Assembly (NCBI GenBank): GCA_964447205.1
Contig: CAYUSB010000004.1
Location: 23,586-51,798, forward strand
DNA from: an uncultured Myxococcaceae bacterium
GTDB taxonomy: Bacteria > Myxococcota_A > Polyangia > Polyangiales > Ga0077539
Length of the DNA: 28,213 nt
Direction: 5' to 3'
Translations under genes and position numbers: made by a program
Part shown: in pieces, positions 528-28,213 of the stretch
How the letters are laid out: each line of letters begins with the position of its first letter
Numbering within the stretch: the first letter of the stretch is position 1
Notes under the pieces: generated by a model
Told to the model about the DNA's origin: nothing
What the model saw: the letters and a program-made list of their open reading frames with translations, nothing else
The model's database searches: none

Positions 528-947
528 CTACCGGGACAAGGCCATGGCAAGCCACGCCGCGACCGCGAGGAATACCCCCGAGGCGGCCCCGAGGAGACGA
601 TAGCGCCCCGCGCCGCCCCGCCGCCCGAAGGCCTCGCCCAGTAGGGCTCCCATCAGAAACACCGCCGGGACCAGCACCGACGACAGCCGAGCGGCCATCC
701 GGGCGGGCTCGTCGGCGCGGCCTGTGAGCAACCGGGTCTCGACCACCCAGGTGAGCGCAAAGCCCAGCACCACCCCCAGGATGCCCCCCGCGAGCCAACC
801 AAACCGCGCAGCCCAGGTGGCCCGGGTCTGCTCCTGGGCCGAGGGTGCGTCGGGTGCGTCGGAGGCGTCGGGTGCGTCGGGGGCGTCGGTCACGGGCAGG
901 GCCAAGGGGAACCCTGCCACAAGGTCTGGGGCGGGCCCAACCCCCAT
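528..947 (-). CDS. Small membrane protein with 3 predicted TM helices
   Basis: 139-aa ORF with three hydrophobic helices ([59 protein letters not shown]). The N-terminus has an acidic [15 protein letters not shown] repeat encoded by a short DNA tandem repeat near 840-895. GC3-rich codon usage is consistent with coding. The start is uncertain. Confidence 0.4.
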
Positions 948-1033
948 CGACGGCGGGGGCCGAGGGTGCTATGTGGCGGACCCCTTGGACGCCCAATGGC
1001 GCGACGCCATGTCGCGCAGGAGTGAGAGCGAAG
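948..1033. promoter_or_regulatory. Divergent intergenic region, likely icd promoter
   Basis: 86-bp gap between minus-strand gene start (947) and icd ATG (1034). GGAG lies 13-16 nt upstream of the icd ATG. Confidence 0.3.
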
Positions 1034-2431
<1,398 letters not shown>

Positions 2432-2627
2432 TCCCTCCCGTATCCCCCCCGTCGACACCCCTTTACGAAACGGCCTCGGGCGTGCAATGTCCGCCCGCGC
2501 GAAGGCGCACCCGCGGCGGACGACGTCGCCCCGGAAGGTCTCTCCGGGCGACGCGGGAGTGCCCCACGACGGCCGTCGCAGACATCTGGAAACCCCTCAG
2601 CGAGACAGACGCAGGAGCATTGGTCCC

Positions 2628-3575
2628 ATGGCGAAGCGCAACAAGATCGCCCTCATCGGCGCGGGCAACATCGGCGGCGAGCTGGCCAACCTGGCGGTGT
2701 CGAAGCAGCTCGGCGACGTCGTGCTGTTTGACATCCCGGCGAAGGCCGACTTCGCCAAGGGCAAGGCCCTCGACCTCGCGCAGAACAGCGCCGTCCTCGG
2801 GTACGACGCCCAGATCTCGGGCAGCGGCGACTGGGCCGACTGCGCCGGGGCGGACGTGATCATCATCACCGCGGGGGTGCCGCGGAAGCCCGGCCAGAGC
2901 CGCGACGACCTCGTGGGGATCAACCTCCCGATCATTCAGAACGTCGCGGAGAACGCCAAGCGGTACTGCCCCGACGCCTTCACCATCGTCATCTCCAACC
3001 CCCTCGACGTGATGGTGTGGGCCTTCCGTGAGGTCACCGGCTTCGCCCCGGCCAAGGTCGTGGGTATGGCGGGCGTGCTCGACGCGGCCCGGCTCCAGTG
3101 TTTCCTCGCCGCCGAGGCCGGGGTCTCGGTCAAGGACGTGCGGGCCATGGTGCTCGGCGGACACGGCGACGACATGGTTCCGGTCCGGGGGTACTGCACC
3201 ATCAACGGGGTGCCCGTGGCCCAGGTGATCGACGGGGCCCGGCTCGACGCCATCGAGCAGCGCACCCGCGGGGGCGGCGGGGAGATCGTCAAGCTCATGG
3301 GCACGAGCGCGTACTACGCCCCGGCCAGCGCGGCCATCGCCATGGCCGAGGCCTACCTCCTCGATCAGAAGCGCCTCCTGCCGGCGGCGGCCCACCTCAC
3401 CGGGCAGTATGGCTACCAGGACATGTACCTCGGGGTGCCCGTGGTGATCGGCAAGGGCGGGGTCGAGAAGATCGTCGAGATCGCCCTCTCCGACGCCGAG
3501 AAGGCCATGCTGGCCAAGAGCGCCGACAGCGTCCAGGGCGTCGTCAACGTCGCCAAGAAGCTGTGGAACAAGTGA
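2628..3575 (+). CDS. mdh: Malate dehydrogenase (LDH-like MDH family)
   Basis: [17 protein letters not shown] Rossmann motif and a conserved LDH/MDH core ([30 protein letters not shown]). AGGAG lies 10-14 nt upstream of the ATG at 2628. Confidence 0.95.
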
Positions 3576-3579
3576 GCCG

Positions 3580-4791
<1,212 letters not shown>

Positions 4792-4801
4792 GGAGAGGGC
4801 C

Positions 4802-5683
4802 ATGTCGATCCTCGTCAACAAGAGCACGCGCCTCGTGGTGCAGGGCATCACGGGCAAGTTTGGTTCGTTTCACGCGCGGCAGATGCTCGCGTACGGCACC
4901 GACCTGGTCGCCGGGGTGACCCCGGGGGCGGGAGGCACCCGCTTCGACCAGACGGTCCCGGTCTACAACACCATGCACGAGGCCGTGCACCACACCGGGG
5001 CCAACGCCTCGGTGATCTTCGTGCCCCCCGCCGGGGCCGCCGACGCCATCCTCGAGGCCGCCGACGCAGGGATCGGCCTCGTGGTCTGCATCACCGAGGG
5101 GGTGCCCGTCATGGACATGCTCCGGGTGCGCCGGGCCCTGGAGCACCGGCTCAACAAAGACCTCCGCCTCGTCGGGCCCAACTGCCCCGGGGTCATCACC
5201 CCCGGACAGTGCAAGATCGGGATCATGCCCGGCCACATCCACAAGGTGGGCAACATCGGGGTGGTCTCGCGCTCGGGCACCCTCACCTACGAGGCCGTCG
5301 GCCAGCTCTCGGCCCTCGACGTGGGGCAGAGCACCTGCGTAGGCATCGGGGGCGACCCCGTCAACGGCACCGACTTCATCGACGTCCTCACCCTGTTCAA
5401 CGACGACCCCGACACCCACGGGGTCATCATGATCGGCGAGATCGGCGGGAGCGCCGAGGAGAAGGCCGCCGGCTGGATCAAGGCCCACATGAAGAAGCCC
5501 GTGGCGGGTTTCATCGCGGGCACCACGGCCCCTCCCGGCAAGCGCATGGGCCACGCCGGGGCGGTGATCTCCGGCGGCAAGGGCAAGGCCAGCGACAAGA
5601 TCGAGGCCATGGAGGCCGCGGGCATCCGCGTGGCCCCGACCCCCGCCCAGATGGCCGAGACCCTGCTCGCCATGATGAAGTAG
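4802..5683 (+). CDS. sucD: Succinyl-CoA synthetase alpha subunit
   Basis: [24 protein letters not shown] with the active-site His region [10 protein letters not shown]. It follows sucC by 10 nt. Confidence 0.95.
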
Positions 5684-5765
5684 TCGCCCTGCGCGACCTA
5701 CTCCCCCCGCCGACTGAAGGGCCCTTGGCCCGGTGTGTGCTGGATGCAGCGTCAGGAGACTGACC

Positions 5766-6155
5766 ATGCAACACGGACACTGGGCCACCCTCTCGATCTC
5801 TTTCGAAACCGCCCTCACACGGCTCCCGTCGGCCCTCAGCGATGAGGGATTCGGCATCATCACCCAGATCGACCTGCAGGCCACCCTGAAGGAGAAGCTC
5901 GGGGTGGAGACGGGGCGCTACCACATCGTTGGGGCCTGCAACCCCACCCTGGCGCACAAGGCTGTGGCAAATGACCCCACCGTGGGGCTCCTCCTGCCCT
6001 GCAACGTGGTGCTGCACGAGACCCCCGAGGGGGACGTTCGGATGGGGGTGATCGACCCGACCAGGACCCTCGGGGTCGACGGGGGTCCAGAGCTCCAGGA
6101 GGTGGCCAGGGACGTCGAGGTCCGCCTCCTGCGGGTGCTGGAGGTCATGAAGTGA
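5766..6155 (+). CDS. DUF302-family protein
   Basis: [78 protein letters not shown] matches the DUF302 pattern ([19 protein letters not shown]...ILGACNP..A...LLPCNV). The ATG at 5766 is preceded by AGGAG at -10. The upstream part of track ORF 5733 is ignored. Confidence 0.75.
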
Positions 6156-6291
6156 AACGCCGACGAAACACCTCGGGCAGGAACACCTGTCTGCGCCGAG
6201 GGCCTTGCCAGCGAGGCCTCGCGCGTTTATAGGGCGCCCCACCGCCGCGGGCCCTCTGTCTCCCTACACCCCGCGCGCAGGAGCCCGCGTC

Positions 6292-6711
6292 ATGGCCATC
6301 GAGACCACCTTCGCCATCATCAAGCCCGACGCCGTGGAGAAAAACTCCACGGGCGCCATCCTCGCCCACATCGAGCGGGCGGGGTTTGTCATCAAGGGCG
6401 CCAAGCGTCTGCACCTCACCCAGGCCCAGGCCGAGGGGTTCTACGCCGAGCACCGGGCCCGGGGCTTCTTCGGCGAGCTCGTGACCTTCATGTCGCGGGG
6501 GCCGGTGTTTGTCCTGGCCCTCGAGGCCGAGGGGGCCATCACGAAGTGGCGCGAGGTCATGGGAGCCACCGACCCGGCCGCCGCCGCCGAGGGCACCATC
6601 CGCAAGCTCTTCGGGGCCTCCAAGGGCGAAAACGCCACCCACGGGTCGGACTCCCCGGGGGCAGCCGCCCGCGAGCTGGCCTACTTCTTCGCGTCGTACG
6701 AGCTGCTCTGA
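6292..6711 (+). CDS. ndk: Nucleoside diphosphate kinase
   Basis: [18 protein letters not shown]...NATHGSDSP with active-site His and the NDK signature. AGGAG lies 10-14 nt upstream of the ATG at 6292. The upstream part of track ORF 6205 is rejected. Confidence 0.95.
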
Positions 6712-6720
6712 GACTTCGCC

Positions 6721-6755
6721 CCGCCCGCCCAGAGCCACTCAGGGCAGGCGGGCGG
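6721..6755. terminator. Candidate bidirectional stem-loop between convergent ndk and the GH43-like gene
   Basis: ccgcccgcc (6721-6729) pairs with ggcgggcgg (6747-6755) around a 17-nt loop. There is no U-tract, which is common in high-GC genomes. It overlaps the stop of the minus-strand gene. Confidence 0.25.
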
Positions 6756-7743
6756 AGATGCGGCCCACCTGCGAGCCCGCGAGCCACCCCGACGGGTCTC
6801 CGCAGGCGCTGAAGTACACATGGATGTGGTCGCCCGAGGCCACCGCGTCGACGGCCCCGAGGTGGCTCCGGGCCCACCCCTCGCCCGAGAGGGTCAGGAG
6901 GGGCGCGTCGTTGGCCGACCATAGGGTCCCGTCGAGGCTGTGCACGAGCCGCAGGGAGGCCGTGGGGGCTCCCTCGGGGTCGACCCCGTAGACGGTCTGG
7001 AGGCCCGCGTAGCCGCCGCCAAGACACGGGAAGACCTTGAGGCTCCCGGCCCCGACCGAGGCCTCGGGGGTGTCAGCCCGGGGCTGGAGCACAGGCTGCG
7101 GATGGGGGACAAACCCGAGGTCCAGGTCGTCGGTCTCGGCCATGCCCACGTACCGCGGGACGGCCCCGTCGCCGAGGGAGGCGGTTCCCGCGGAGAAGTA
7201 GAGCTTCCAGCGGTCGCCGGCGTGGACGAGGCAGGGGTGGCTCACCCAGTCTCCGCCCCCCTGGGCCGCGAACCACGGGAGGCTCGTGGTGAGGGTCGGG
7301 GTGGTCGTGTCCCAGTCGTAGACCGTCTGCCCGAAGCGGGTGACCAGCTCGGCCCGGGCGGGGAAGGGCAGGGCCCCGCGGGCGGCTACTGCGATGGGGC
7401 CGCGGGTGTACATCATCACCAGGCCCTCGGGGAGGAGGCGGACGTGGGCCCCCATCGCGTGGGCGGCCACGAGGTCCTCGCGCGACCAGCGCAGCCCGTC
7501 GGGGGAGGTGTAGTGGTCGATGCCGAGGGGGGAGTCGGCCCACAGGTGCCACAGGTCGTCGAGGCGGTTGTCGGCCGAGAGCACCGTCGGGTCGCGGACC
7601 GCGGGGGCCCCAAGGGTGGGGACCAGGAACGGGGCCGTGGCCACGGGGCTCCAGCGCAGGGCAGACCATTCGGCGGCGGTGAGGCGTCGGTCGAGGGGGT
7701 GCATGGCCTCGGGAGGATGCCTCATCCGGGCCCCGGGGTGCAT
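6739..7743 (-). CDS. Five-bladed beta-propeller glycoside hydrolase-like protein (GH43/GH32/GH130 clan), start uncertain
   Basis: Only the C-terminal ~335 codons of the 914-aa track ORF look protein-like (RDPTVLSADN, WKLYFSAG, HIHVYFSACG blade-like motifs). The rest is antisense to the GHL10 gene. Candidate starts are 7743 (MHPGAR..), 7725 and 7704. No signal peptide is present. Confidence 0.55.
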   Translation of the reverse strand: MHPGARMRHPPEAMHPLDRRLTAAEWSALRWSPVATAPFLVPTLGAPAVRDPTVLSADNRLDDLWHLWADSPLGIDHYTSPDGLRWSREDLVAAHAMGAHVRLLPEGLVMMYTRGPIAVAARGALPFPARAELVTRFGQTVYDWDTTTPTLTTSLPWFAAQGGGDWVSHPCLVHAGDRWKLYFSAGTASLGDGAVPRYVGMAETDDLDLGFVPHPQPVLQPRADTPEASVGAGSLKVFPCLGGGYAGLQTVYGVDPEGAPTASLRLVHSLDGTLWSANDAPLLTLSGEGWARSHLGAVDAVASGDHIHVYFSACGDPSGWLAGSQVGRISARLP

Positions 7744-7788
7744 CACGGGGCTTGAAGGAGCTCCGGGGGTGGTGTTCCCCTCCCGCGG
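7744..7788. promoter_or_regulatory. Divergent promoter region between the GH43-like and GHL10 genes
   Basis: 45-bp gap between divergent start codons. Confidence 0.3.
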
Positions 7789-9468
7789 GTGACGCGCGCA
7801 CGAACGATCGGGCTGGGCCTCCTCCTGGCCCTGGGCGGGGCCACAGGGTGCGGGGACATGGCCGACGACCCAGGAGGGGATGCCATGTCCGACGCGGCCG
7901 CGGAGGGCCCCCTGGACGCCCTGGACGCGGCCTCCGCGGACGGCCCGACCGACGCGGGGCGGGACGCGGGGCGGGACGCAGGCATGGACGCAGGGCGGGA
8001 TGCGTGGATCGACGTGGGGATCGACGTGGGGATCGACGTGGGGATCGACGCGGGACGAGACGCGGGCATGGAGGCCGGGGTGGATGCGGAGGCGCCGGTG
8101 TTTCGGGGGCACACCCGGGAGTTTCGGGGGGCCTGGGTGGCCACGGTGTTCAACATCGACTGGCCGAGCCGGACGGGGCTGTCGGCGGCGGTCCAACGGC
8201 AGGAGATGAACGCCCTCCTCGACGCCGCGGCGGGGGCCGGGCTCAACGCAGTGATGCTCCAGGTGCGGCCCGAGGGGGACGCCCTGTACCGCTCGACCCT
8301 GGAGCCCTGGTCGCGGTTTCTCTCGGGGCGACAGGGGACCGATCCCGGCTACGACCCCCTCGCGTACGCCGTCGCCGAGGGGCACCGGCGGGGGGTGGAG
8401 GTTCACGCGTGGATCAACCCGTTTCGTGCCCGAACGAGCGCCACCGGCACGTCCGTGGCCCCCCACATCAGTGTCACCCACCCCGCCGCCTGCGTCGTCT
8501 ACGACGGGGGCCTGTGGATGAACCCCGCCTCCCCCGTGGTGGTCGACCGGCTCGCCTCCGTGGTCGAAGACCTCCTCGCGCGGTACGAGGTCGACGGGAT
8601 CCACTTCGACGACTACTTCTACCCCTACCCCGAGACAGGGATGGCCTTCCCGGACAGCCCGGACTACCAGCGGTACCAAACCGGGGGCGGGGCCCTGTCC
8701 CTCGGCGACTGGCGCCGCGACAACGTCAACCGCGTGATCGAACGGGTCGGGGCCGTGGTGGCCCGGGTTCGGCCGACGGCCCGGTTTGGGGTGTCGCCCT
8801 TCGGGATCTGGCGCCCGGGAAACCCCGCGGGCATCACGGGCCTCGACGCGTACGCCGCCATCTACTGCGACGCCCCGCGCTGGATGCGGATGGGCTGGGT
8901 CGACTACCTCGCTCCGCAGCTCTACTGGCCCAGCACCCAGGCTCCGCAGGCGTACGGGCCCCTCGTGCGCTGGTGGGCCGAGACCACGTCCGCGGGGCGC
9001 TCGGTGTTTGGCGGCAACAACCTGTCGCGCCTGGGGTCGTCCAGCGCCTGGACGGCCGCCGAGATCCGGCAGCAGGTGACCCTCACCCGCGACAATGCCG
9101 GGCGCGGGGCCCGGGGAAACATCTTCTTCACGATCAGCCAGGTGCGGGCCAACCGGCTCGGGGTGAGGGACGTGCTGCGGGAGTTGTATACGACCCCGGC
9201 CCTGCCGCCCCCGGTGGCCGCGCGGCGTGGGGTGACGGTGGCCCCGCCGGGGGTGACGCGGACGGGAACCACGCTGACGGTGACCCATCCGCGGACGGGT
9301 TCGTTGCGGTCGTGGGTGGTGTACCGGGCCGACGGGGCGGGGTGGACGGTGGAGGAGATTGTTCCGGCGGCGCGGGGGACGGTGACGGTGCGGTCGGGGC
9401 GGTGGGCCGTGACAGCCGCCGACCGCGACGCGGTGGAGAGCGCCCCGGTGATGGTCACGGTGCCGTGA
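7789..9468 (+). CDS. Glycoside hydrolase-like family 10 (GHL10/DUF187, YngK-like) lipoprotein
   Basis: Signal peptide with lipobox (LLLALGGATGC). The core RGAWVATVFNIDWPS...NAVMLQVRPEGDALYRS..EPWS..GYDPLAYAVAEGHRRGVEVHAWINPF matches the GHL10 TIM-barrel family. The N-terminal low-complexity DAGRDAG/IDVG tandem repeat is encoded by 12-nt DNA repeats at 7951-8073. Confidence 0.85.
   Translation: MTRARTIGLGLLLALGGATGCGDMADDPGGDAMSDAAAEGPLDALDAASADGPTDAGRDAGRDAGMDAGRDAWIDVGIDVGIDVGIDAGRDAGMEAGVDAEAPVFRGHTREFRGAWVATVFNIDWPSRTGLSAAVQRQEMNALLDAAAGAGLNAVMLQVRPEGDALYRSTLEPWSRFLSGRQGTDPGYDPLAYAVAEGHRRGVEVHAWINPFRARTSATGTSVAPHISVTHPAACVVYDGGLWMNPASPVVVDRLASVVEDLLARYEVDGIHFDDYFYPYPETGMAFPDSPDYQRYQTGGGALSLGDWRRDNVNRVIERVGAVVARVRPTARFGVSPFGIWRPGNPAGITGLDAYAAIYCDAPRWMRMGWVDYLAPQLYWPSTQAPQAYGPLVRWWAETTSAGRSVFGGNNLSRLGSSSAWTAAEIRQQVTLTRDNAGRGARGNIFFTISQVRANRLGVRDVLRELYTTPALPPPVAARRGVTVAPPGVTRTGTTLTVTHPRTGSLRSWVVYRADGAGWTVEEIVPAARGTVTVRSGRWAVTAADRDAVESAPVMVTVP
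7951..8073. repeat. Tandem 12-nt coding repeats (gacgcggggcgg / gatcgacgtggg units, ~10 copies)
   Basis: Direct reading. Three perfect consecutive gatcgacgtggg units lie at 8008-8043. Confidence 0.8.
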
Positions 9469-9528
9469 GGGAGACGGGGCCAACGGCGACGAGGTGGGCT
9501 ATACCCTCCAGGGCGAGGACGGTGGACG

Positions 9529-10726: not shown

Positions 10727-11563
10727 TCAGCGGCGGCGCTCGAAGCGGAAGGTCACCGACCCGCCCGCGCAGAGGACGGTCTTGCTCCCCGCGGCGAGCT
10801 CCGCGGGGGTCGCGGTGAGTCGCCCGCGGCACACCACATCGCCCGCGCGCACGTTGGTGATGGGCGAGTCGTCGTCTTCCAGCACGAAGTCGAGGCCCGC
10901 GCCGAGGCGAGGCTCTTCGACGATGCCCACCTCGGCGTCGTAGGTCCCCTCGCAGCGGTTGCCCGCCGGCGCGGTGATCATCCCGTTGACCCGCACGAAG
11001 GGGTCGGGCAGCGACGGGGAGCAGAAGGGCTGACCGCCGTTGCGGCACGCATCCCACGAGGTGTCGCAGCGGTCGACGCGCGCTGAGGCCACCCGCAGGA
11101 GCCACAGCGGACCGGTGTACGGCGCCGGGTCGCAGCGCCCGAAGCCCTCGGCACAGACGAAGCCCGCGCCGCAGGTGCCGCACTCGACCACCCCGCACGC
11201 GTCGGAGCTCGCGATGCCGCACTGTCGTCCCGTGCAGAGCTCCTCGCACGCCGAGGGGCCGGTGTCGGGCGCGCCCGCGTCGGCGGGGGTGCGCGGCAGG
11301 AGCTCGCAGCGGGCTCGTCCGCCCCCGGGCCGCACGCACCGCGCGTCGTCGCCGCAGTCGTCGTCACGCGTGCAGAGGTCCTCGGGCTCGGGCTCGGGCG
11401 TTGCGCCGCCGTCGGCCTCCTCGGGGGGCTCTGCCGGGACGTGGGTGTCGGCGGTGGCGGCGCCCGCGTCGGCGCGGCGAGACTCGGGGAGCGTGTTGCC
11501 CACGTAGCAGGCAGACAGCGGGGCGAGGGCGGCGACGACGAGGAGCGAGGTGAGTACGCGCAT
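10727..11563 (-). CDS. Cys-rich secreted lipoprotein
   Basis: The ATG at 11563 (MRVLTSLLVVAALAPLSAC, lipobox LSAC) has GGAGG 8 nt upstream. The mature part has an acidic linker, then Cys-knot-like CTRDDDCGDDARC and CEELCTGRQCG..ACGVVECGTCGAGFVCAEGFGRC motifs. The track ORF start at 11767 is rejected. Confidence 0.65.
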   Translation of the reverse strand: MRVLTSLLVVAALAPLSACYVGNTLPESRRADAGAATADTHVPAEPPEEADGGATPEPEPEDLCTRDDDCGDDARCVRPGGGRARCELLPRTPADAGAPDTGPSACEELCTGRQCGIASSDACGVVECGTCGAGFVCAEGFGRCDPAPYTGPLWLLRVASARVDRCDTSWDACRNGGQPFCSPSLPDPFVRVNGMITAPAGNRCEGTYDAEVGIVEEPRLGAGLDFVLEDDDSPITNVRAGDVVCRGRLTATPAELAAGSKTVLCAGGSVTFRFERRR

Positions 11564-11782: not shown

Positions 11783-12346
11783 TCAGAAGCTCCCGGCGAT
11801 GCCCACCCACGACCCCTGCGGCAGCGGCACGACGGCGGGCGAGAGACGGAACGACACGTGGGCCCGCGCGGGCGTGCGCGTCACGGTCCGTGGGGACATC
11901 CACACGGCGCCGACGGTGCCGCCCAGCAGGGTGGCCCCCAGCCCGAGGAGCAGGGAGGGCGTGCTGTAGTCGGACCGACTCGCCAGCGCTGCACCCAACG
12001 CGACGCCGGGCAACATGCCTACAAACGTGCCGAGCAGCGCGCGACCGTACGACACCGGAGCGCCGTAGCGTCGGCCCGCGAGGGTCACCCCGAGCGGCGT
12101 GCCAAACACGATGCCAACCCCGGCGCCCATCAAGCCGAAGGCGGCCGCGCTGATCTCGCCCGTCGAGGTGAGCGCGGGCGGCAGCCCCAGTGCTGTGGCC
12201 GCGAGGGCCCCCGTGGCGGCCCCCGACAGTCCCATCACCCACGGCTTGGCCTCCTCCACGGGTGGACCGATGCCCTGCGCGGATGCCCCAGCGGGAACGA
12301 GGGTCAACGCCACCGCCAGGCCTGCGACCCCCGCCGAGTGCCACAT
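11783..12346 (-). CDS. Gly/Ala-rich secreted protein, possibly a small outer-membrane beta-barrel
   Basis: ATG at 12346 (MWHSAGVAGLAVALTLVPAGASAQG signal peptide) with GGGAGA upstream. The protein is Gly/Ala-rich with alternating hydrophobics and a C-terminal aromatic residue (…GIAGSF). Confidence 0.5.
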   Translation of the reverse strand: MWHSAGVAGLAVALTLVPAGASAQGIGPPVEEAKPWVMGLSGAATGALAATALGLPPALTSTGEISAAAFGLMGAGVGIVFGTPLGVTLAGRRYGAPVSYGRALLGTFVGMLPGVALGAALASRSDYSTPSLLLGLGATLLGGTVGAVWMSPRTVTRTPARAHVSFRLSPAVVPLPQGSWVGIAGSF

Positions 12347-12453
12347 GGGAGAAGTCTCCCACAGCGCCGCGGAGGCTCGCAACGGTCGACGCGCTCTGCG
12401 GCGACCGCCGAGGCCGGCGCGCTCCGCGGGTCGTCCTGCTCGACTTCTGGCTC

Positions 12454-13131
12454 ATGAGCGGCCCAGGCGACGACGGCGTCGAGCCGGCAGGAACGCTCGC
12501 GAACATGGCCCCCGAGCCGACGAGCGGTCGTCCCAGCAGCGAGGCCGCGGACTGGTATGCGTTCGGCACCATGCTCTACGAAGCGCTCTCGGGTCGTCGG
12601 CTCTCCGAGGGGCCGTCGGACGAGGTTCGTCGCAAGAGAGTCGACGGAGAGCCTCCCCTGCCGCTGACAGACGTGGACGGCGACCTGGGTCGACTGTGTC
12701 ACGACCTGCTGCAGCACGCGTCCGCGCTGCGCCCTTCAGGTCCGGAGGTGCTCGCCCGCATGGCGTCGCGCCGCGGCGAAGACGAGCTCGTTGCGAGCTC
12801 CGTGCCCGCGTTGGACGAGGAGCACGCCGTCAAGCTCACAGGTCGCGACGCAGAGATCCAGCGGCTCGGTGACGCGCTGGAAGTCACGCGCGGCGGGCAC
12901 CCCTCCGTCGCCCTCGTCCACGGTCGATCGGGCGTGGGCAAGACCGCCCTCGTCGATCAACTCGTGAGGATGTTGGGCGATACCTCGCCGAGCCCGGGCG
13001 GGAGCCGGACCTTGTTCTTCCCTTGCCGGGATGGGCGGTGCATCACCCCGGCGGGCGACTCCTCCAACTGCGGCGGATGCGGCCTCGCCTGCCCGATGGG
13101 ACGGCTCTGTTCGGTGGGCCTCTGCGGCTGA
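12454..13131 (+). pseudogene. Remnant of a Ser/Thr protein kinase-AAA_16 (STAND-type) gene: kinase C-lobe + start of NTPase
   Basis: The frame encodes kinase subdomains VII-XI only (VLLDFW[G] with a degenerate DFG, then NMAPEP, DWYAFGTMLYEAL, LRPSG), then the first ~60 aa of an AAA_16-like P-loop NTPase (GRDAEIQRLGDAL...VHGRSGVGKTALVDQL). It then breaks into an unrelated Cys-rich tail (NCGGCGLACPMGRLCSVGLCG). The N-lobe is absent because upstream DNA is occupied by the minus-strand gene ending at 12346. Codon usage is relaxed (gga, cgt, aga, aca). Confidence 0.5.
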
Positions 13132-13160: not shown

Positions 13161-14222
13161 TCACCTGCGCGTGCGGACGCGCGTCACGACGACCGTCGCG
13201 CCGAGGGCGCGGGCCACGTGTTTCCCGTCGAGGCTCATCGCGAGGGGCCACCCTTCTGGCCACGGCGGTCGCGCCGTCGTTGCCGGGGGCGTCCAGCGCA
13301 GGCGCAGCACGCGGGGGAGACTGCTTGTGAGGCCCTGGCGAAGGAGTCCGAGCGGGGCGTCGCCGCCCCACGGCGGGAGGCGGCGCCACGTCACGCGCGG
13401 GGGGACACCCCCGAAGTGCACGGCGGACAGGGCTTCGCCCCGGGGCAGCGGGCGCGCGCGCTGGACCCCGGTCGCGAGGTCCACCATGGAGGTCGCGGCG
13501 GACTTGCCCGCGGTGACGACGACGAGGCGACCGCCGTCGGGCGTGAACGCCAGGCAGGCAGGGGGCCCCGATCCCCGCGTGGGCAGCGCAAGCCAGCGGA
13601 CATCGCCCGCCGCGGTGTCGATCACCCCGAGCGGCCGCGGTCCTCCCCGCACCACCGCGAGCCGCGTGCCGTCGTGGCTCCACACCTGGACCTCGGCGTC
13701 GACGTCGGCGAACGTCCGAAGCTCGACGCCGCGCGCCACGTCCCAGATCGTCGTGCCGCGCTCGGCCAGCGAGGTCGCGAGCCGTGTGCCGTCGGGGCTC
13801 AGGGCGAAGCGGCCGGTGCCGGAGGTGGTGTCCGGGTACCGCGCGAGGTCGGGCGCGAACAGGGTGTACGCGTGGACGCCCGCGTCGCGGACGAAGACCT
13901 CGATCCACCGGGCCCAGTCGTTCTGGGTCAGCCGGAGGTCAAACCCGGCGACGAGATGACGCCCGTCGCGCGTAAAGGCCACCGAGCGCGCCATCGTCGC
14001 GATGCCGTCGTCACGGCACTGCACCCGCAGCGCCGGCACGAGGGCGCTGGGGTACTCCTCGCGCCGCGCCCCCGAGCGCGGGTCGTACACGGCGATACGA
14101 TCCGCGAGCCCGACAGCGAGGCGCCGACCCGTGGCGTCGAACGCGAGGGCGCCGATCCCTCCGTCTCCCCACCCGTCGGTCGAGGCCCCGCCACCCGCAG
14201 CCTCTGGCACGTCGAACCGCAT
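13161..14222 (-). CDS. WD40/PD40-like beta-propeller repeat protein
   Basis: Five or more repeats of the L-A-F-[TS]-x-D-G-x-[RH]-L-[AV]-x type (LAFDATGRRLAVG, VAFTRDGRHLVAG, FALSPDGTRLATS, VWSHDGTRLAVV, LAFTPDGGRLVVV). No signal peptide. Confidence 0.75.
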   Translation of the reverse strand: MRFDVPEAAGGGASTDGWGDGGIGALAFDATGRRLAVGLADRIAVYDPRSGARREEYPSALVPALRVQCRDDGIATMARSVAFTRDGRHLVAGFDLRLTQNDWARWIEVFVRDAGVHAYTLFAPDLARYPDTTSGTGRFALSPDGTRLATSLAERGTTIWDVARGVELRTFADVDAEVQVWSHDGTRLAVVRGGPRPLGVIDTAAGDVRWLALPTRGSGPPACLAFTPDGGRLVVVTAGKSAATSMVDLATGVQRARPLPRGEALSAVHFGGVPPRVTWRRLPPWGGDAPLGLLRQGLTSSLPRVLRLRWTPPATTARPPWPEGWPLAMSLDGKHVARALGATVVVTRVRTRR

Positions 14223-23379: not shown

Positions 23380-24129
23380 CTAGCCCTTCGGGCGTGTGGG
23401 CGCAGCCCCACGGGACCTGCGTCGTCGCGACCCCAGGAGGATGGCCCCCGACCCGAGGGCTACGTTGGTCGCGAGGAGCAGGGTGAGGGCGCGGCGGAGG
23501 GGTTCGGCCGAGGCGGGGGCGACGGCGAAGGGGCCCACGTGCAGGAGGCCCGGGGGCGGCGGGGACGGGGCCGCGGTGGTGACGAAGAGCGAGACGTGCT
23601 CGGGGGACAGCCCGCGCACCCCGTCGGCCACGAGGCGACGTACGGCCTCGCGGTCGAGGGGGGAGCCGGGGCGGAGGTGCAGGGCCACCGCGGCCCGCCG
23701 TGGGGGCAGGGCGAGGGGTTCGTCGAGCCGGGGCAGGGGCTCTTCGGGCAGGTGAACCCGGGCCCACAGCACCCCGTTCAGCCGTCGCAGGGTCAGGGCC
23801 AGCTCGTCGCCGAGGGCGCGATCGAGCCGGGCCCTCTCCGCGGCGAGGCCTTCCAACACGGGCCGGGCAGGCGTCTGGGCGAACCCCCCCGGGCTCGGTC
23901 CCTCTGCGCGCAGGGTCTCGACGGCCCGTGCCACCTCCTCGGGGCCGACGGCCACCCGCCACCCGACGCCCCGCGATGAAGCCGCCCGGGAGGCCGAAAC
24001 CCCCGCGGCCTCGAGCCGACCGACTACCCGCAGGCTCTCGGCCTCGTCCACCCCGTCGAGCACGGCCACCTCGCCGCAGCCCGCCCCGAGGGCCCCGAGG
24101 GTCGCGAGGGCTAGAACCCGAAGCCCCAC
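23380..24129 (-). CDS. SctJ/YscJ-FliF family-like ring lipoprotein (orphan)
   Basis: The GTG at 24129 gives (M)GLRVLALATLGALGAGC (lipobox LGAGC). The segment LDGVDEAESLRVVGRLEAAGVSAS...GVGWRVAVGPEEVARAVETLRAEGPSPGGF matches the YscJ_FliF N-terminal domain pattern (LsE.EAn.i...L...gI.a.k....gGw.l.Vpe.d.arA.elLr..GlPr.gf). A second domain and a C-terminal TM (LTLLLATNVALGSGAILLG) with a basic tail follow. The 249-aa size is typical of SctJ. There is no ATG, so a GTG start is assumed. The start lies inside the 3' end of the upstream kinase gene. Confidence 0.55.
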   Translation of the reverse strand: MGLRVLALATLGALGAGCGEVAVLDGVDEAESLRVVGRLEAAGVSASRAASSRGVGWRVAVGPEEVARAVETLRAEGPSPGGFAQTPARPVLEGLAAERARLDRALGDELALTLRRLNGVLWARVHLPEEPLPRLDEPLALPPRRAAVALHLRPGSPLDREAVRRLVADGVRGLSPEHVSLFVTTAAPSPPPPGLLHVGPFAVAPASAEPLRRALTLLLATNVALGSGAILLGSRRRRSRGAAPTRPKG

Positions 24130-25979
24130 GACAGGCCGATGCGGGGCCCCCCGAAGGCCCGCCACGAGAGCGAGCGCACGACGTTGCTCACGCACGATTT
24201 CACCCCCGGCGACCCGTTGGCCACGGTGACCCCCATGGCCCGCCCCGTCCCCGCGATGGCGATGCGCACCTGAACCTGCCGGGCGCTCCCGTCGCCGAGG
24301 CACCCGGCGAAGCGCGACAGGCTGGCGTTGAGGGGGCGGGTGATCTCGGCGTCGTTGAGGGTCCCGCCTCCGGGGCCGCTCCCGCCGAAGTTGTAGTCCA
24401 CGGCCTGGGCCATGGCGGCCTCGTAACTCATGCCCCCGTGGCCGCCTCCGCCGCCTCCGCCGCCGCCCGCGCGCCGGGCCGAGGGGGGAGGCGGGGGCAG
24501 GAGGATGATGCTGGAGGTCTGCACCCGCAGCTCGCCCCGTTGGATGAGCTGGTCGATCTCCGCGGCGCTCCGCTGGCGTTTGGCCCCGGGGCCGACGGTG
24601 ATCCAGTACACCCCCCCGAGGAGCCCGAGAGACAGGACGCTGGCCACGGCCACGATGAGCTTCGACCGGCTGGCCACCCCGTGCTCGGCCAGGGCCTCCT
24701 CGGTGGCGGCCCGGCGCTGGGATCCCTGGCGCTGCTCGCGGGCGGTCTCGACAAACTCGCGGTACTGGGGCCAGTCGAGGAGCTTGCGTTTGTCGGCCGT
24801 GTCCATGTTGGACACGAGGTCGGTCTCGGCCACCTCGCCCCGCACGATGGCCGCGATGAGCTCGCGGGCCGTGAGGGGGCCGTGGTCGAGGCCTCCGTGG
24901 GCGTACATCCAGCGGTCGGCGTCGTCGCGGGTGACGGCCCGCAGGAGGGTCCCGAGGTCGGCGTCGGAGGCCCGCGGGGCCACGAGGTCGGGCGAGGAGG
25001 CCGCCCCCATGGGGTCGACGGAGAGGTCGAACTCCACGGGGATCTCGACCCGGGCCGCCCCGGGGGGCATCGGGGGGGCCCCGGCGAGGTCAAACTCGAC
25101 GGGGATCTCCTCGTCGTCACGGACGGGGGAGACGGCGGGGCCCAGAAGGGCCGCGAAGGCCTGGCGGAAGGCTCCGACGGAGGGGAAGCGGTCGACGGCC
25201 TTGGGGGCGAGGCAGTTGTCGAGGATGGCGTCGAATGCGGCGGGCAGGTCGGGGTTGAGCGACGAGGGGGCCACCTCGGGATTGGGGCGGCGCCCCGTGA
25301 CGAGCTCGTGCAGGACCACCCCGAGGGAGTACACGTCGCTCTGGGCGCTCGGCATGGCCCCGTTGCGCACCTCGGGGGCGACGTAGTGGCCCGGGACGGC
25401 GTTGGACACCACCAGGGGGGTGAGGAGCCCGAGCCCGGCCAGGCGCACCCGCTCGCCCTCGATGCGCACGAGGCTCGGGGCCACCCCTCCGTGGGCCATC
25501 GTGCGGTGCACGATCCCGAGGAGGTAGGCCACCCGGTCGACGTAGGGGAAGGCCTCTTCGAGGGTGTAGTAGGCCCCGGCCCGGCGCAGGACCTCGAGGC
25601 GGTCGCTCAGGGCCACCTCGCCGAGGGGCTCGGTGGCCACGCACAGGGCGGAGCCTTCGGGGTGGGGCAGGACGAAGGTGCCGAAGGGGGCCACGAGGTC
25701 GCGGTGGGCGATCGGGGCCGCCGCCCGAACGGCCCGGCGGGTCATCTCGAGCTGGGCGTCGGTGAGGGCCCCGGGGGCCATCGACCACACGGCGATGGGG
25801 CGCCCGGTCTTCTGGTCGGTGGCGTGAAAGATGTCGATGTCGCCGAGGCGTTGGGCGTGGCGGTCGACCTGGAAGCGCCCGCCGATGACGGTCCCGGTCT
25901 GGACAGAGGCCGCGGTGGGCGTCGGGGTGGCGGGCGGAGCGGGAGAGGCCATTGGGGGGGCGCAGGATGGTACCTGCAT
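24111..25979 (-). CDS. Bitopic transmembrane pseudokinase (Ser/Thr-kinase fold, degenerate catalytic motifs) with periplasmic two-Cys domain
   Basis: Only the C-terminal 623 codons of the 1175-aa track ORF are real; the rest is antisense to glyS. The kinase fold is recognisable (IGGRFQV Gly-loop remnant, YVAPEV, SDVYSLGVVLHELVTG). However the VAIK Lys is replaced (IAVWSM), the catalytic loop reads HRTMAHGGVAPS instead of HRDxKxxN, and DFG reads GLG. A duplicated EIPVEFDL motif, a TM helix (LIVAVASVLSLGLLGGVYWITV), a poly-Gly linker and a C-terminal domain with 2 Cys follow. The product ends WGFGF. Confidence 0.75.
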   Translation of the reverse strand: MQVPSCAPPMASPAPPATPTPTAASVQTGTVIGGRFQVDRHAQRLGDIDIFHATDQKTGRPIAVWSMAPGALTDAQLEMTRRAVRAAAPIAHRDLVAPFGTFVLPHPEGSALCVATEPLGEVALSDRLEVLRRAGAYYTLEEAFPYVDRVAYLLGIVHRTMAHGGVAPSLVRIEGERVRLAGLGLLTPLVVSNAVPGHYVAPEVRNGAMPSAQSDVYSLGVVLHELVTGRRPNPEVAPSSLNPDLPAAFDAILDNCLAPKAVDRFPSVGAFRQAFAALLGPAVSPVRDDEEIPVEFDLAGAPPMPPGAARVEIPVEFDLSVDPMGAASSPDLVAPRASDADLGTLLRAVTRDDADRWMYAHGGLDHGPLTARELIAAIVRGEVAETDLVSNMDTADKRKLLDWPQYREFVETAREQRQGSQRRAATEEALAEHGVASRSKLIVAVASVLSLGLLGGVYWITVGPGAKRQRSAAEIDQLIQRGELRVQTSSIILLPPPPPSARRAGGGGGGGGGHGGMSYEAAMAQAVDYNFGGSGPGGGTLNDAEITRPLNASLSRFAGCLGDGSARQVQVRIAIAGTGRAMGVTVANGSPGVKSCVSNVVRSLSWRAFGGPRIGLSWGFGF

Positions 25980-26072
25980 CCGTCGGGGCGCAGCAAGGGT
26001 GCAGCGCGCGGGTGGCTTTACGCGCCGCGGCGGGGCTGCTACCAGTGCCGACCTGCGAGGGATAGAGAGCGA
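25980..26072. promoter_or_regulatory. Divergent intergenic region between the pseudokinase operon and glyS
   Basis: 93-bp gap between divergent start codons (25979 on the minus strand, 26073 on the plus strand). Confidence 0.3.
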
Positions 26073-28205
26073 ATGACATCGACGCTGTTGCTGGAGGTCG
26101 GGTGCGAAGAGCTGCCGACGTCGTTCTTGGAGGATGCGATGGGGCAACTTGGGAAGAGCCTCCCCGAGGAGCTCGATCGGGTGGGGGTGGCCCACGGGGC
26201 GGTGCGGGTCCTCGGGACCCCGCGTCGCGTGGCCGTGGTGGTCGAGGAGGTGGTCGCCGAGATCGCCCCCCGCGAGGAGGAACTCCTCGGCCCCCCGGCT
26301 TCGGCCGCCCTCGGGCCCGACGGCGGCTGGAGCCGCGCGGCCGAAGGGTTCGCCAAGAAGAACGGCCTGTCCATCGACGCCCTGTCCCTGGTCGACACCC
26401 CCAAGGGGCGTTACCTCCGGGCCCTCAAGCGCACCCCGGGGACCTCGGCCATCGCCCTCCTGCCCGCGGCCCTCACCGCCGCCCTGCGTCGGGTGACCTT
26501 CGCCAAGTCGATGCGCTGGGCCCAGCAGGAGACGGCCTTCGGGCGGCCCGTCCAGTGGATCGTGGCCCTCCTCGACGACGCCGTGGTGCCCCTGTCCTTC
26601 GCCGGGGTGGACGCGGGGCGGGCGACGTACGGGCATCGGTTTCTGGCCCCGTCGGCGATCTCGTTGGGGCACGCGAGGGGGTACCCCGAGACCCTGCGGG
26701 CGGCGAAGGTCGAGGTCGACCCCAAGGCCCGTCGTGATTCGGCCCTGGAGGCCCTCCTGGCCGCGGCCGCGACCGAGGGCGGGATCCTGCGGCGCGACGC
26801 CTTCCTGGAGGGCGAGGTGACGGGCCTGGTCGAGTGGCCCGCGGTGGTGGTGGGGCGCTTCGAGGAGAGCTTCCTCGACCTGCCCGACGCCCTCATCGAG
26901 AGCGTGATGCGCGGCCACCAGCGCTACTTCGCCGTCGAGGGGCCGACCCCGCCCGGCGGGTCCGCCCGGCTCCTCCCGCGGTTTCTGACCGTGGTCAACA
27001 CGGCCCTCGACCCCGAGACCATCCGCCGGGGCAACGAGCGCGTGATGCGGGCCCGCCTCAACGACGCGGCCTTCTTCGTGCGCCAGGACCGCAAGCGCCC
27101 ACTGGCCGACCGGGTGTCCGACCTCGACGCCGTGGTCTTCCACGCCCGGATCGGCTCGTACGGCGACAAGGCCCGCCGCCTCGGGGCCCTCACCGCCGCC
27201 CTGGCCGCCGTGGTCGAGGCCACCCGCCCCGGGTTCGCCGCCCCCGACGAGGCCGCCCGGGCCGGGGTCCTCGCCAAGGCCGACCTCGTGACCCTGGCCG
27301 TGGGAGAGTTTCCCGAGCTCCAGGGCGAGATGGGGGGCTACTACGCCCGCCACGACGGCGAGCCCGCGGCCGTCTCCGAGGCCCTCGGGCAGCAGTACCA
27401 GCCCCGCGGGGCCGCCGACGCCGTGGCCCCCTCGGCCCTCGGGGCCCTCCTCGCCGTCGCCGACCGCCTCGACACCCTCGTGGGCTGCTTCGCGGTGGGC
27501 CTGCGCCCCACGGGGGGCGAAGACCCCTTCGGCCTGCGCCGGGCGGCCATCGGGATCCTGCGGACCCTGCTCGACCACCGCCTCCGCCTCGACCTCCGCA
27601 CCGCCGTCAGATGCGCCCTGTCCGCGTATCAAACCCACGGGGCCGACAGCCCCGCAGGCAGGGCCGTGGCCACGGAGGCGTCCCAGGCCGCTCTCACCGC
27701 CGCGGTGGTGGACTTCTGCGCCGAGCGGCTCAAGGGCCTGCTCGACGAGCGCTTCGGCCGCGACCCCGTGGCGGCGTGTATGGCCGCGGGCAAGACCGAC
27801 CCCGTCGATCTGCTTGAGCGGGTCGAGGCCGTCGACGCCTTCTGGGCCACCCCGGCCGCCCAGGACCTGGCCGTGGCCTTCAAGCGCGTCTTCAACATCT
27901 CTCGGGGGGCTCCGGCCGGAGAGGTCTCGGACGCGGTCCGGGGGTGCCTCCTCCTGCCCGCGGAGGTCGAGCTCCTCGCGGCCTACGACACGACCCGGGT
28001 GGGCCTCGGCCCCCTCCTCGCGGCCCGAGACTTTGTCGGGGCCATGGGGCTCATCGCACGCACCCTGCGGGGGCCCGTCGACCGCCTCTTCAACGAGGTG
28101 TTCGTGATGGACAAGGATCCGACCCTGCGCGACGCGCGCCTCCTCCTCCTCGGGCGCCTCGCCGACGCCGTGGGGCAGCTCGCCCGCTTCGACGCCCTGG
28201 AGTAA
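26073..28205 (+). CDS. glyS: Glycyl-tRNA synthetase beta subunit
   Basis: MTSTLLLEVGCEELPTSFL.. aligns from the N-terminus with E. coli GlyS (MSEKTFLVEIGTEELPPKAL). Further conserved blocks are LVEWPAVVVGRFEESFL, GEMGGYYARHDGE, QQYQPRGAAD and DPFGLRRAAIGILR. The start ATG is at 26073, in frame with track ORF 23700, whose upstream part is rejected. Confidence 0.9.
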   Translation: MTSTLLLEVGCEELPTSFLEDAMGQLGKSLPEELDRVGVAHGAVRVLGTPRRVAVVVEEVVAEIAPREEELLGPPASAALGPDGGWSRAAEGFAKKNGLSIDALSLVDTPKGRYLRALKRTPGTSAIALLPAALTAALRRVTFAKSMRWAQQETAFGRPVQWIVALLDDAVVPLSFAGVDAGRATYGHRFLAPSAISLGHARGYPETLRAAKVEVDPKARRDSALEALLAAAATEGGILRRDAFLEGEVTGLVEWPAVVVGRFEESFLDLPDALIESVMRGHQRYFAVEGPTPPGGSARLLPRFLTVVNTALDPETIRRGNERVMRARLNDAAFFVRQDRKRPLADRVSDLDAVVFHARIGSYGDKARRLGALTAALAAVVEATRPGFAAPDEAARAGVLAKADLVTLAVGEFPELQGEMGGYYARHDGEPAAVSEALGQQYQPRGAADAVAPSALGALLAVADRLDTLVGCFAVGLRPTGGEDPFGLRRAAIGILRTLLDHRLRLDLRTAVRCALSAYQTHGADSPAGRAVATEASQAALTAAVVDFCAERLKGLLDERFGRDPVAACMAAGKTDPVDLLERVEAVDAFWATPAAQDLAVAFKRVFNISRGAPAGEVSDAVRGCLLLPAEVELLAAYDTTRVGLGPLLAARDFVGAMGLIARTLRGPVDRLFNEVFVMDKDPTLRDARLLLLGRLADAVGQLARFDALE

Positions 28206-28213
28206 CCCTCAGC

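Follow-up and report, generated by a model that had tools for sequence, protein, structure and literature searches.

The annotated open reading frame P0001 is a chimera of three unrelated pieces, a kinase C-lobe, an AAA_16 stub and a Stig1-type repeat, and it is probably a doubly truncated, catalytically dead gene relic that has been annotated as a gene. Its parent would have been a paralogue in a family of cytoplasmic Ser/Thr kinases of about 1,250 aa (Pkinase + AAA_16 + long C-terminal region), one that is massively expanded in Myxococcota-like genomes, and the relic would represent the middle ~190 codons of that parent. The features are listed in Table 1; the window to which we refer is the whole stretch of 28,213 nt that was analysed.

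Table 1. Position of the relic, its component pieces and its two neighbouring genes in the window
Feature	Position	Strand	Basis
P0020, 187-aa Gly/Ala-rich protein with N-terminal signal-peptide-like segment; neighbour, not relic	11783..12346	-	GC3 0.9-0.95 in frame
No-homology stretch between P0020 start and kinase 5' break (80 nt)	12347..12426	.	Catalytic-loop columns, N-lobe profile, repeat search
Kinase C-lobe remnant, subdomains VII-XI	12427..12753	+	Pfam Pkinase, tblastn HSPs, alignment A1, AlphaFold
DFW replacing DFG	12442-12450	+	
Annotated ORF P0001, 225 aa	12454..13131	+	ORF list and sequence; first ATG past 5' break to stop
Pfam Pkinase (PF00069) match, profile positions 156-258 of 263, 24.5 bits	12481-12753	+	
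APE	12508-12516	+	
DWYAFG	12550-12567	+	
Subdomain XI RP	12730-12735	+	
AAA_16 (STAND-type) NTPase N-terminal stub: lead-in helix, strand 1, Walker A and its helix	12832..12996	+	Pfam AAA_16, HSP ends
Pfam AAA_16 (PF13191) match, profile positions 1-51 of 167, 46.4 bits	12832-12984	+	
Walker A GRSGVGKT	12922-12945	+	
Stig1-type six-cysteine repeat, one unit (CRDGRCITPAGDSSNCGGCGLACPMGRLCSVGLC), in frame, then Gly and stop	13024..13128	+	Pfam Stig1, NCBIfam, BLASTP
P0001 stop codon	13129-13131	+	
P0019, divergent 353-aa WD40-type beta-propeller; neighbour, not relic	13161..14222	-	GC3, weak WD40/beta-propeller Pfam matches

The window has a GC content of ~72%. The plus-strand frame that contains P0001 is open over 313 codons (12190-13131), and the ATG at 12454 is the first one beyond the upstream gene. 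Gene calls for the NCBI, ENA and Logan assemblies all include P0001, which forms a singleton cluster. The locus is identical, base for base, in the NCBI MAG contig (246 kb), in the ENA contig k139_705010 (L001, 39 kb) and in the Logan contig SRR8863431_27582 (L002, 6.8 kb), and since three assemblies agree on the sequence, an artefact of one assembler is unlikely. Over 13.5 kb, the sole difference between L001 and the window is a 12-nt tandem repeat, GGGGATCGACGT, of which the window has one additional copy. This repeat lies at 8017-8052, inside a GHL10-like gene (7885-9468, plus strand) some 4.4 kb upstream of P0001, and encodes a repeat of 4 aa.

At the three codon positions, the GC content of P0001 is 0.72/0.57/0.83, which is coding-like, with a GC3 below that of the neighbouring genes (0.88-0.93). 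The ATG at 12454, which was taken as the start both by the gene callers and in a preliminary description of this DNA, is not preceded by an SD-like site (2/5 matches); at least 4/5 matches are present in 10 of 15 neighbouring genes. Between this ATG and the divergent gene P0020 there are 107 nt. Rfam and tRNA scans found no RNA genes, and a scan for promoter and terminator consensus sequences, which is uninformative at 72% GC, found none either. A defence-system context was considered and dropped, as PADLOC returned only generic kinase matches, and none for the neighbours.

The kinase piece carries the C-lobe motifs APE, DWYAFG (DxWxxG) and RP (with the Arg of subdomain XI), all of them present and aligned. 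The DFG motif reads DFW, and the Gly that it lacks is invariant in 114 homologues. The Pfam Pkinase score of 24.5 bits falls under the gathering score of 31.7, because the C-lobe alone is present. For the N-lobe (glycine-rich loop, VAIK lysine, alpha-C glutamate), a profile finds nothing in six frames, and the HRDxKxxN catalytic loop is absent, the sequence upstream of the break, TVDALCGD, agreeing with HRDxKPxN at one of eight conserved columns. Kinase homology begins at 12418 or 12427, which is 5' of the called ATG, such that the predicted P0001 protein lacks even the DFW.

The AAA_16 piece scores well above its Pfam gathering score (46.4 versus 32.6 bits), and its Walker A conforms to GxxGxGK[ST]. 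The Pfam match stops at position 51, and Walker B as well as the remainder of the NTPase core (profile positions 52-167) are absent. The stub may extend to about 13020, with TLFF aligning with the VVL strand of the family. A frameshifted continuation of AAA_16 past 12996 was sought by profile search of six frames and was not found. The preliminary description had seen in this DNA a fragment of a STAND-type Ser/Thr kinase, with C-lobe and AAA_16 start, and had listed kinase subdomains VII-XI, a Walker A and the change of DFG to DFW; each of these features was found, and Pfam and phmmer homology confirm the assignment. It had also proposed that the N-lobe was replaced by the gene of a secreted protein. 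The N-lobe is indeed missing, but the gene upstream (11783-12346) is encoded on the other strand and is set apart from the kinase piece, without overlap, by a gap of 80 nt.

An exhaustive phmmer search of 1.84 billion cluster representatives gave 12,700 matches at E<=0.001, with a best non-self match of 7e-40, and the 4,171 matches at E<=1e-10 show that the homology is not due to chance. The nearest relatives are 1,200-1,300 aa long and 42-48% identical, with some tandem-duplicated forms of about 2,400 aa. They belong to the Ser/Thr kinases of Myxococcota, Acidobacteriota and Actinobacteria that combine Pkinase, AAA_16 and a long C-terminal part, and the relic is colinear with them, at this level of identity, over the C-lobe, the linker and the first 50-60 residues of AAA_16, including the same spacing from the end of the kinase to Walker A. 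PknK of M. tuberculosis presumably has the same broad architecture. Unlike the members of this family, the relic has only about 190 of about 1,250 residues and is without the N-lobe, the HRD loop, Walker B and the C-terminal region, and it has DFW for DFG and a foreign cysteine repeat as its C-terminus.

Both ends of the homologous segment are sharply placed. In phmmer, the relatives align to residues 13-205 only of a 249-aa translation begun at 12382, and the stretch to which they are confined measures 570 nt. When 148 full-length homologues were compared by tblastn with the whole window, HSPs were obtained at 12409-13044 on the plus strand and, apart from this, at an unrelated kinase-like gene on the minus strand (about 25200-25900). 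At the relic, the HSPs start at 12427 (117 times) or at 12418 (25 times), and they end mainly at 12966-12996, a few of them reaching 13041/13044. Profiles of the N-terminal parts and of the 895 columns that follow Walker A, built from 88 full-length relatives and searched with filters off at E<=100, had no match in any of the six frames of the 28-kb window. It follows that the parent gene has been cut short at its two ends, with none of the missing ~1,050 codons in the vicinity; compared with any full-length homologue, the fragment retains about 190 of about 1,250 residues. These 190 homologous codons contain no frameshift and no stop, and one in-frame HSP covers 12427-12975. Direct or inverted repeats, IS ends and duplications were looked for at the junctions, and no such signature of a mobile element or repeat was found. 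The stretch without homology that precedes the kinase piece (12347-12426) contains, on the minus strand, the SD-like GGGAGA of P0020.

Two short members of the family, P0087 and P0185, were considered as natural mini-versions and rejected, being contig-end partials or frameshifted sequences. Several members from public metagenomes (P0010, P0013, P0073, P0084 and P0185) have Arg/Pro-rich tails that look out of frame, or start in mid-domain. Frameshifted or fragmentary copies seem to be frequent in the kinase-AAA_16 family, be it by real decay or by assembly error.

The third piece, the cysteine-rich tail, matches Pfam Stig1 (PF04885) at the border of significance for that family (24.3 bits versus a gathering score of 24.1, E=4.5e-5), and it has a weak match to NCBIfam C_rich_MXAN6577 (E=2.9e-5, 24 bits versus a cutoff of 100). 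In BLASTP, it matches several repeats of a 955-aa Stig1-repeat protein, which comes from a metagenome contig that also carries a 67%-identical homologue of P0020; in the best case, 17 of 31 positions are identical (E=6e-8), and one of the alignments takes in the C-x-DGRC lead-in. The identity to individual repeats of this protein is 44-56%. With the Stig1-type or MXAN_6577-like repeat proteins of Myxococcota, which are secreted proteins or lipoproteins, the tail shares the pattern C-x-DGRC-x5-D-x2-NCGxCG-x-C-x2-G-x-C-x2-G-x-C. In contrast to them, P0001 has a single unit and no signal peptide, and the unit is joined to domains of a cytoplasmic type. By inspection, the N-terminus of P0001, MSGPGDDGVEPAGTLANMAPE, has no hydrophobic segment that would provide a secretory context, and the ORF thus holds an extracellular-type disulfide module without a signal peptide. 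The AlphaFold pLDDT of the tail is 41-59.

That the tail could be a third fused fragment had been suggested in the preliminary description, and this has been borne out, in that an unrelated piece with a Stig1 match (E=6e-8) is joined in frame. Its resemblance to the lipoprotein at 10727-11563, which had been pointed out as well, did not hold: the comparison of the two gives E=0.029 over a match of 6/14, the lipoprotein itself compares with the Stig1-repeat protein at E=0.42, and no Pfam family was found for it. With a match to Stig1 and none to the lipoprotein, the tail is a separate, unrelated third fragment that does not derive from this lipoprotein. An origin by local duplication was considered too and rejected, as nothing else in the window, the lipoprotein included, resembles the tail at the DNA or protein level.

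How might such an ORF have come about? On the 5' side, the parent would have lost its first ~170-190 codons, with the glycine-rich loop, the VAIK lysine, alpha-C and the HRD catalytic loop, and on the 3' side all that lies beyond the Walker-A helix or NTPase strand 2, about 900 codons. At the 3' break, a lone cysteine repeat of the Stig1 type, closed by a stop codon, follows the remnant in frame. In alignment A1, the segment VL-AGRCYERE of the family lines up with TLFFPCRDGRC, and the join may lie at, or just before, the short G-R-C motif that occurs both in the AAA_16 family (AGRCYERE) and in the Stig1 unit (DGRC). Gene callers would then report a protein of 225 aa because an ATG happens to lie nine codons past the 5' break. 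The breaks could have arisen by deletion or illegitimate recombination, either in situ or by capture of a fragment in double-strand-break repair.

If a product is made, it would not be expected to phosphorylate, having no ATP-binding lobe, no catalytic base and a Trp in place of the Gly of DFG, nor would it be expected to hydrolyze NTP, with Walker B and the sensor regions missing. Of 48 columns conserved to at least 85%, 10 are broken in the fragment in a leave-one-out comparison, whereas full-length homologues break 2.5 +/- 2.0 on average and only 2 of 114 reach ten. Among the broken columns are the invariant Gly of DFG, the Tyr of GTPxYMAPE and the Pro of GRxPF. This may be taken as an indirect sign of relaxed selection, though a parent that was a pseudokinase to begin with could have acquired these surplus changes before it was truncated; a pseudokinase-like gene does occur in the window, at 24111 to about 25980. 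AlphaFold2, run on an alignment of 15 sequences, predicts the C-lobe helices and the P-loop stub with local pLDDT of 81-94 (83-94 for the C-lobe helices), but there is no confident global fold (pTM 0.49). The local confidence probably reflects helices inherited from the homologues, and would not be decisive as to whether the protein can fold.

What counts against a simple old pseudogene is that frameshifts and stops are absent, that the coding periodicity is kept and that all three pieces are in one frame. With 190 intact codons and a preserved GC periodicity, the truncation is recent unless some constraint still acts. The intact frame is compatible with a recent truncation, and a young functional chimera would look alike. 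P0001 might accordingly encode a small chimeric protein that is functional without being catalytic, for instance by engaging, as a decoy or adaptor, the partners or substrates of the paralogous kinases through its alpha-F to alpha-I surface. The frame that runs unbroken through the three pieces with coding-type GC periodicity would agree with this, but the argument from a single frame is weakened in that a join is in frame with a chance of 1 in 3 and long spurious ORFs are common at 72% GC. The 107 nt to the divergent P0020 could hold a promoter; an SD-like site, however, is missing. Walker A, APE and DWYxxG are still perfect, yet they stand beside the excess of changes at conserved positions, and of the NTPase fold, the stub contains no more than strands one and two. 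Similarly, the C-lobe helices are well predicted, but alpha-E and the catalytic loop, which pack on alpha-F, are missing from the lobe, the pTM is low, and the cysteine repeat would reside in the reducing cytoplasm. Neither an orthologue nor a similar architecture was present among the 1.84 billion cluster representatives, and among ~15 billion proteins there was no relative with more than 48% identity to P0001. On balance, we hold a functional small protein to be unlikely, and the more specific version of it, in which P0001 is a young expressed gene that serves as a non-catalytic binder or decoy in the expanded kinase network of an uncultured Myxococcota-like lineage, to be improbable. It is very improbable that the junctions are misassembly joints between reads of paralogues or of different organisms. 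The DNA does come from a metagenome-assembled genome, the kinase family has a great many paralogues, and the frameshifted Arg-rich tails of several public family members are suggestive of assembly or sequencing errors; against this, both junctions are 100% identical in three assemblies made by different software, GC content and GC3 are continuous over the junctions, and the flanking genes are intact.

The gene relic also has to be weighed against the model of the preliminary description, according to which an inversion or insertion split an ancestral kinase-AAA-WD40 gene and the convergent WD40 gene P0019 is the inverted C-terminal part. We consider this scarcely credible. It had been correctly noted that the WD40 gene (13161-14222) is on the opposite strand and convergent with the kinase fragment, and the two adjoin, with the end of P0019 29 nt away. 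Fusions of kinases with WD40 do exist in bacteria, and one WD40 homologue of P0019, P0045, has a kinase piece; in Myxobacteria and Planctomycetota, fusions of a kinase with WD40 or TPR are common, which is general background and not evidence on this locus (PMC11032199). The comparison that had been proposed, namely whether the fragment and the WD40 protein have their best matches in the same proteins, was carried out, and the two pieces match unrelated families, an outcome that had itself been named as speaking against the model; the model is thus unsupported. In a Pfam scan, the seven nearest full-length relatives of the relic consist of Pkinase, AAA_16 and about 700 aa without a Pfam match, and none has a WD40 domain. 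Of 39 canonical WD40 proteins related to P0019, 38 have no match at E<=1e-5 to the 148 nearest homologues of the relic; the 39th is P0045, which matches them almost wholly via its own kinase piece, the exception being one short match outside it (P0045 257-294 with P0151 141-180). P0019 itself gives nothing significant against the 148 kinase-AAA_16 homologues (best E=0.01 in this small set). Its relatives are generic WD40 proteins with at most 31% identity and, apart from the weak case of P0045, without kinases; the best of them, in a search of 5.8 billion clusters, is 31% identical over 53% of the length. Taken by itself, P0019 has strong coding statistics (GC3 0.85-1.0), and it has its own ATG. 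An inversion would moreover leave unexplained that ~900 parent residues are absent without a trace on both strands, which counts against it, and there are no inverted repeats flanking the segment. In comparison with PkwA-like kinase-WD40 fusions, the likeness is confined to kinase-derived sequence lying beside a WD40-type gene. The kinase piece and the WD40 gene are on opposite strands rather than in one polypeptide, the kinase piece comes from an AAA_16-linked subfamily whose members have no canonical WD40 match here, and P0019 has no kinase-linked relatives, with the one weak exception. P0019 is an orphan propeller that is very divergent. Each of its Pfam WD40 or propeller matches is far under the gathering score, even though the coding signal is strong.

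As to the remaining surroundings, P0020 is transcribed divergently from the relic. In L082 and L083, the homologue of P0020 has a DDE transposase and a phage Mu F-like gene in its vicinity. Homologues with 67-68% identity occur in several metagenomes (L082-L088), always in different neighbourhoods and without any other gene of the window, which suggests that P0020 is a mobile gene or belongs to a paralogue family. Syntenic relatives were sought via the GHL10 gene among GTDB species representatives and JGI metagenomes; the best matches had 49-52% identity, and none carried other genes of the neighbourhood. The comparison of synteny that the preliminary description had proposed thus yielded no syntenic relative in these collections. 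For the neighbouring glycosyl-hydrolase-like gene, the closest sampled relatives are in Myxococcota MAGs (Polyangium, Sandaracinaceae; 46-51% identity), and for the 373-aa neighbour no match was found in metagenomes.

On the plus strand, 755-6711 contains a housekeeping cluster with genes for an isocitrate dehydrogenase-like protein, malate/lactate dehydrogenase, succinyl-CoA ligase beta and alpha, DUF302 and nucleoside diphosphate kinase. From about 6739 onward, the genes are lineage-specific and hypothetical, and the region is variable. A second kinase-like gene on the minus strand (24111 to about 25980) has weak Pfam kinase matches (29 bits), with 'AHGGVAPS' in place of HRDLKPxN and 'LAGLGL' in place of DFG, and continues into a predicted membrane segment and a C-terminal region rich in Gly; it looks like a pseudokinase. 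The long ORF upstream of it, which reaches to 28208, appears to be an antisense shadow of a plus-strand gene. Antisense shadow ORFs of 920-1,541 codons lie over real genes at 6739-9498 (minus) and at 23583-28205 (plus) / 24111-28208 (minus), and they illustrate that, at the GC content of the window, open frames of several hundred codons arise without a coding function.

The most fitting place for the fragment is in the Pkinase-AAA_16 family, as a truncated member or pseudogene fused to one Stig1-type repeat. As with other bacterial pseudogenes and remnants that are annotated as short ORFs, P0001 is shorter at either end than every homologue, is alone in its cluster and lacks a ribosome-binding signal, and its conservation is relaxed at sites that are invariant in the family. 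In contrast to typical remnants, P0001 is free of internal frameshifts and stops, and part of another gene continues its reading frame.

P0001 is deposited in public databases with the labels Pkinase and AAA_16, yet its product would be neither a kinase nor an NTPase. Flagging it as a remnant avoids that it is miscounted in surveys of the Myxococcota kinome or of STAND NTPases. If it were a young chimera after all, the birth of a new gene by fusion of fragments would be observable in bacteria, and an expressed product would make P0001 a modest case study of gene birth from fragments. As the debris of a highly expanded paralogue family, the feature is ordinary, with little importance beyond annotation hygiene, but it would show, in a small and clean case, how chimeric in-frame remains are left by paralogue families that have expanded.
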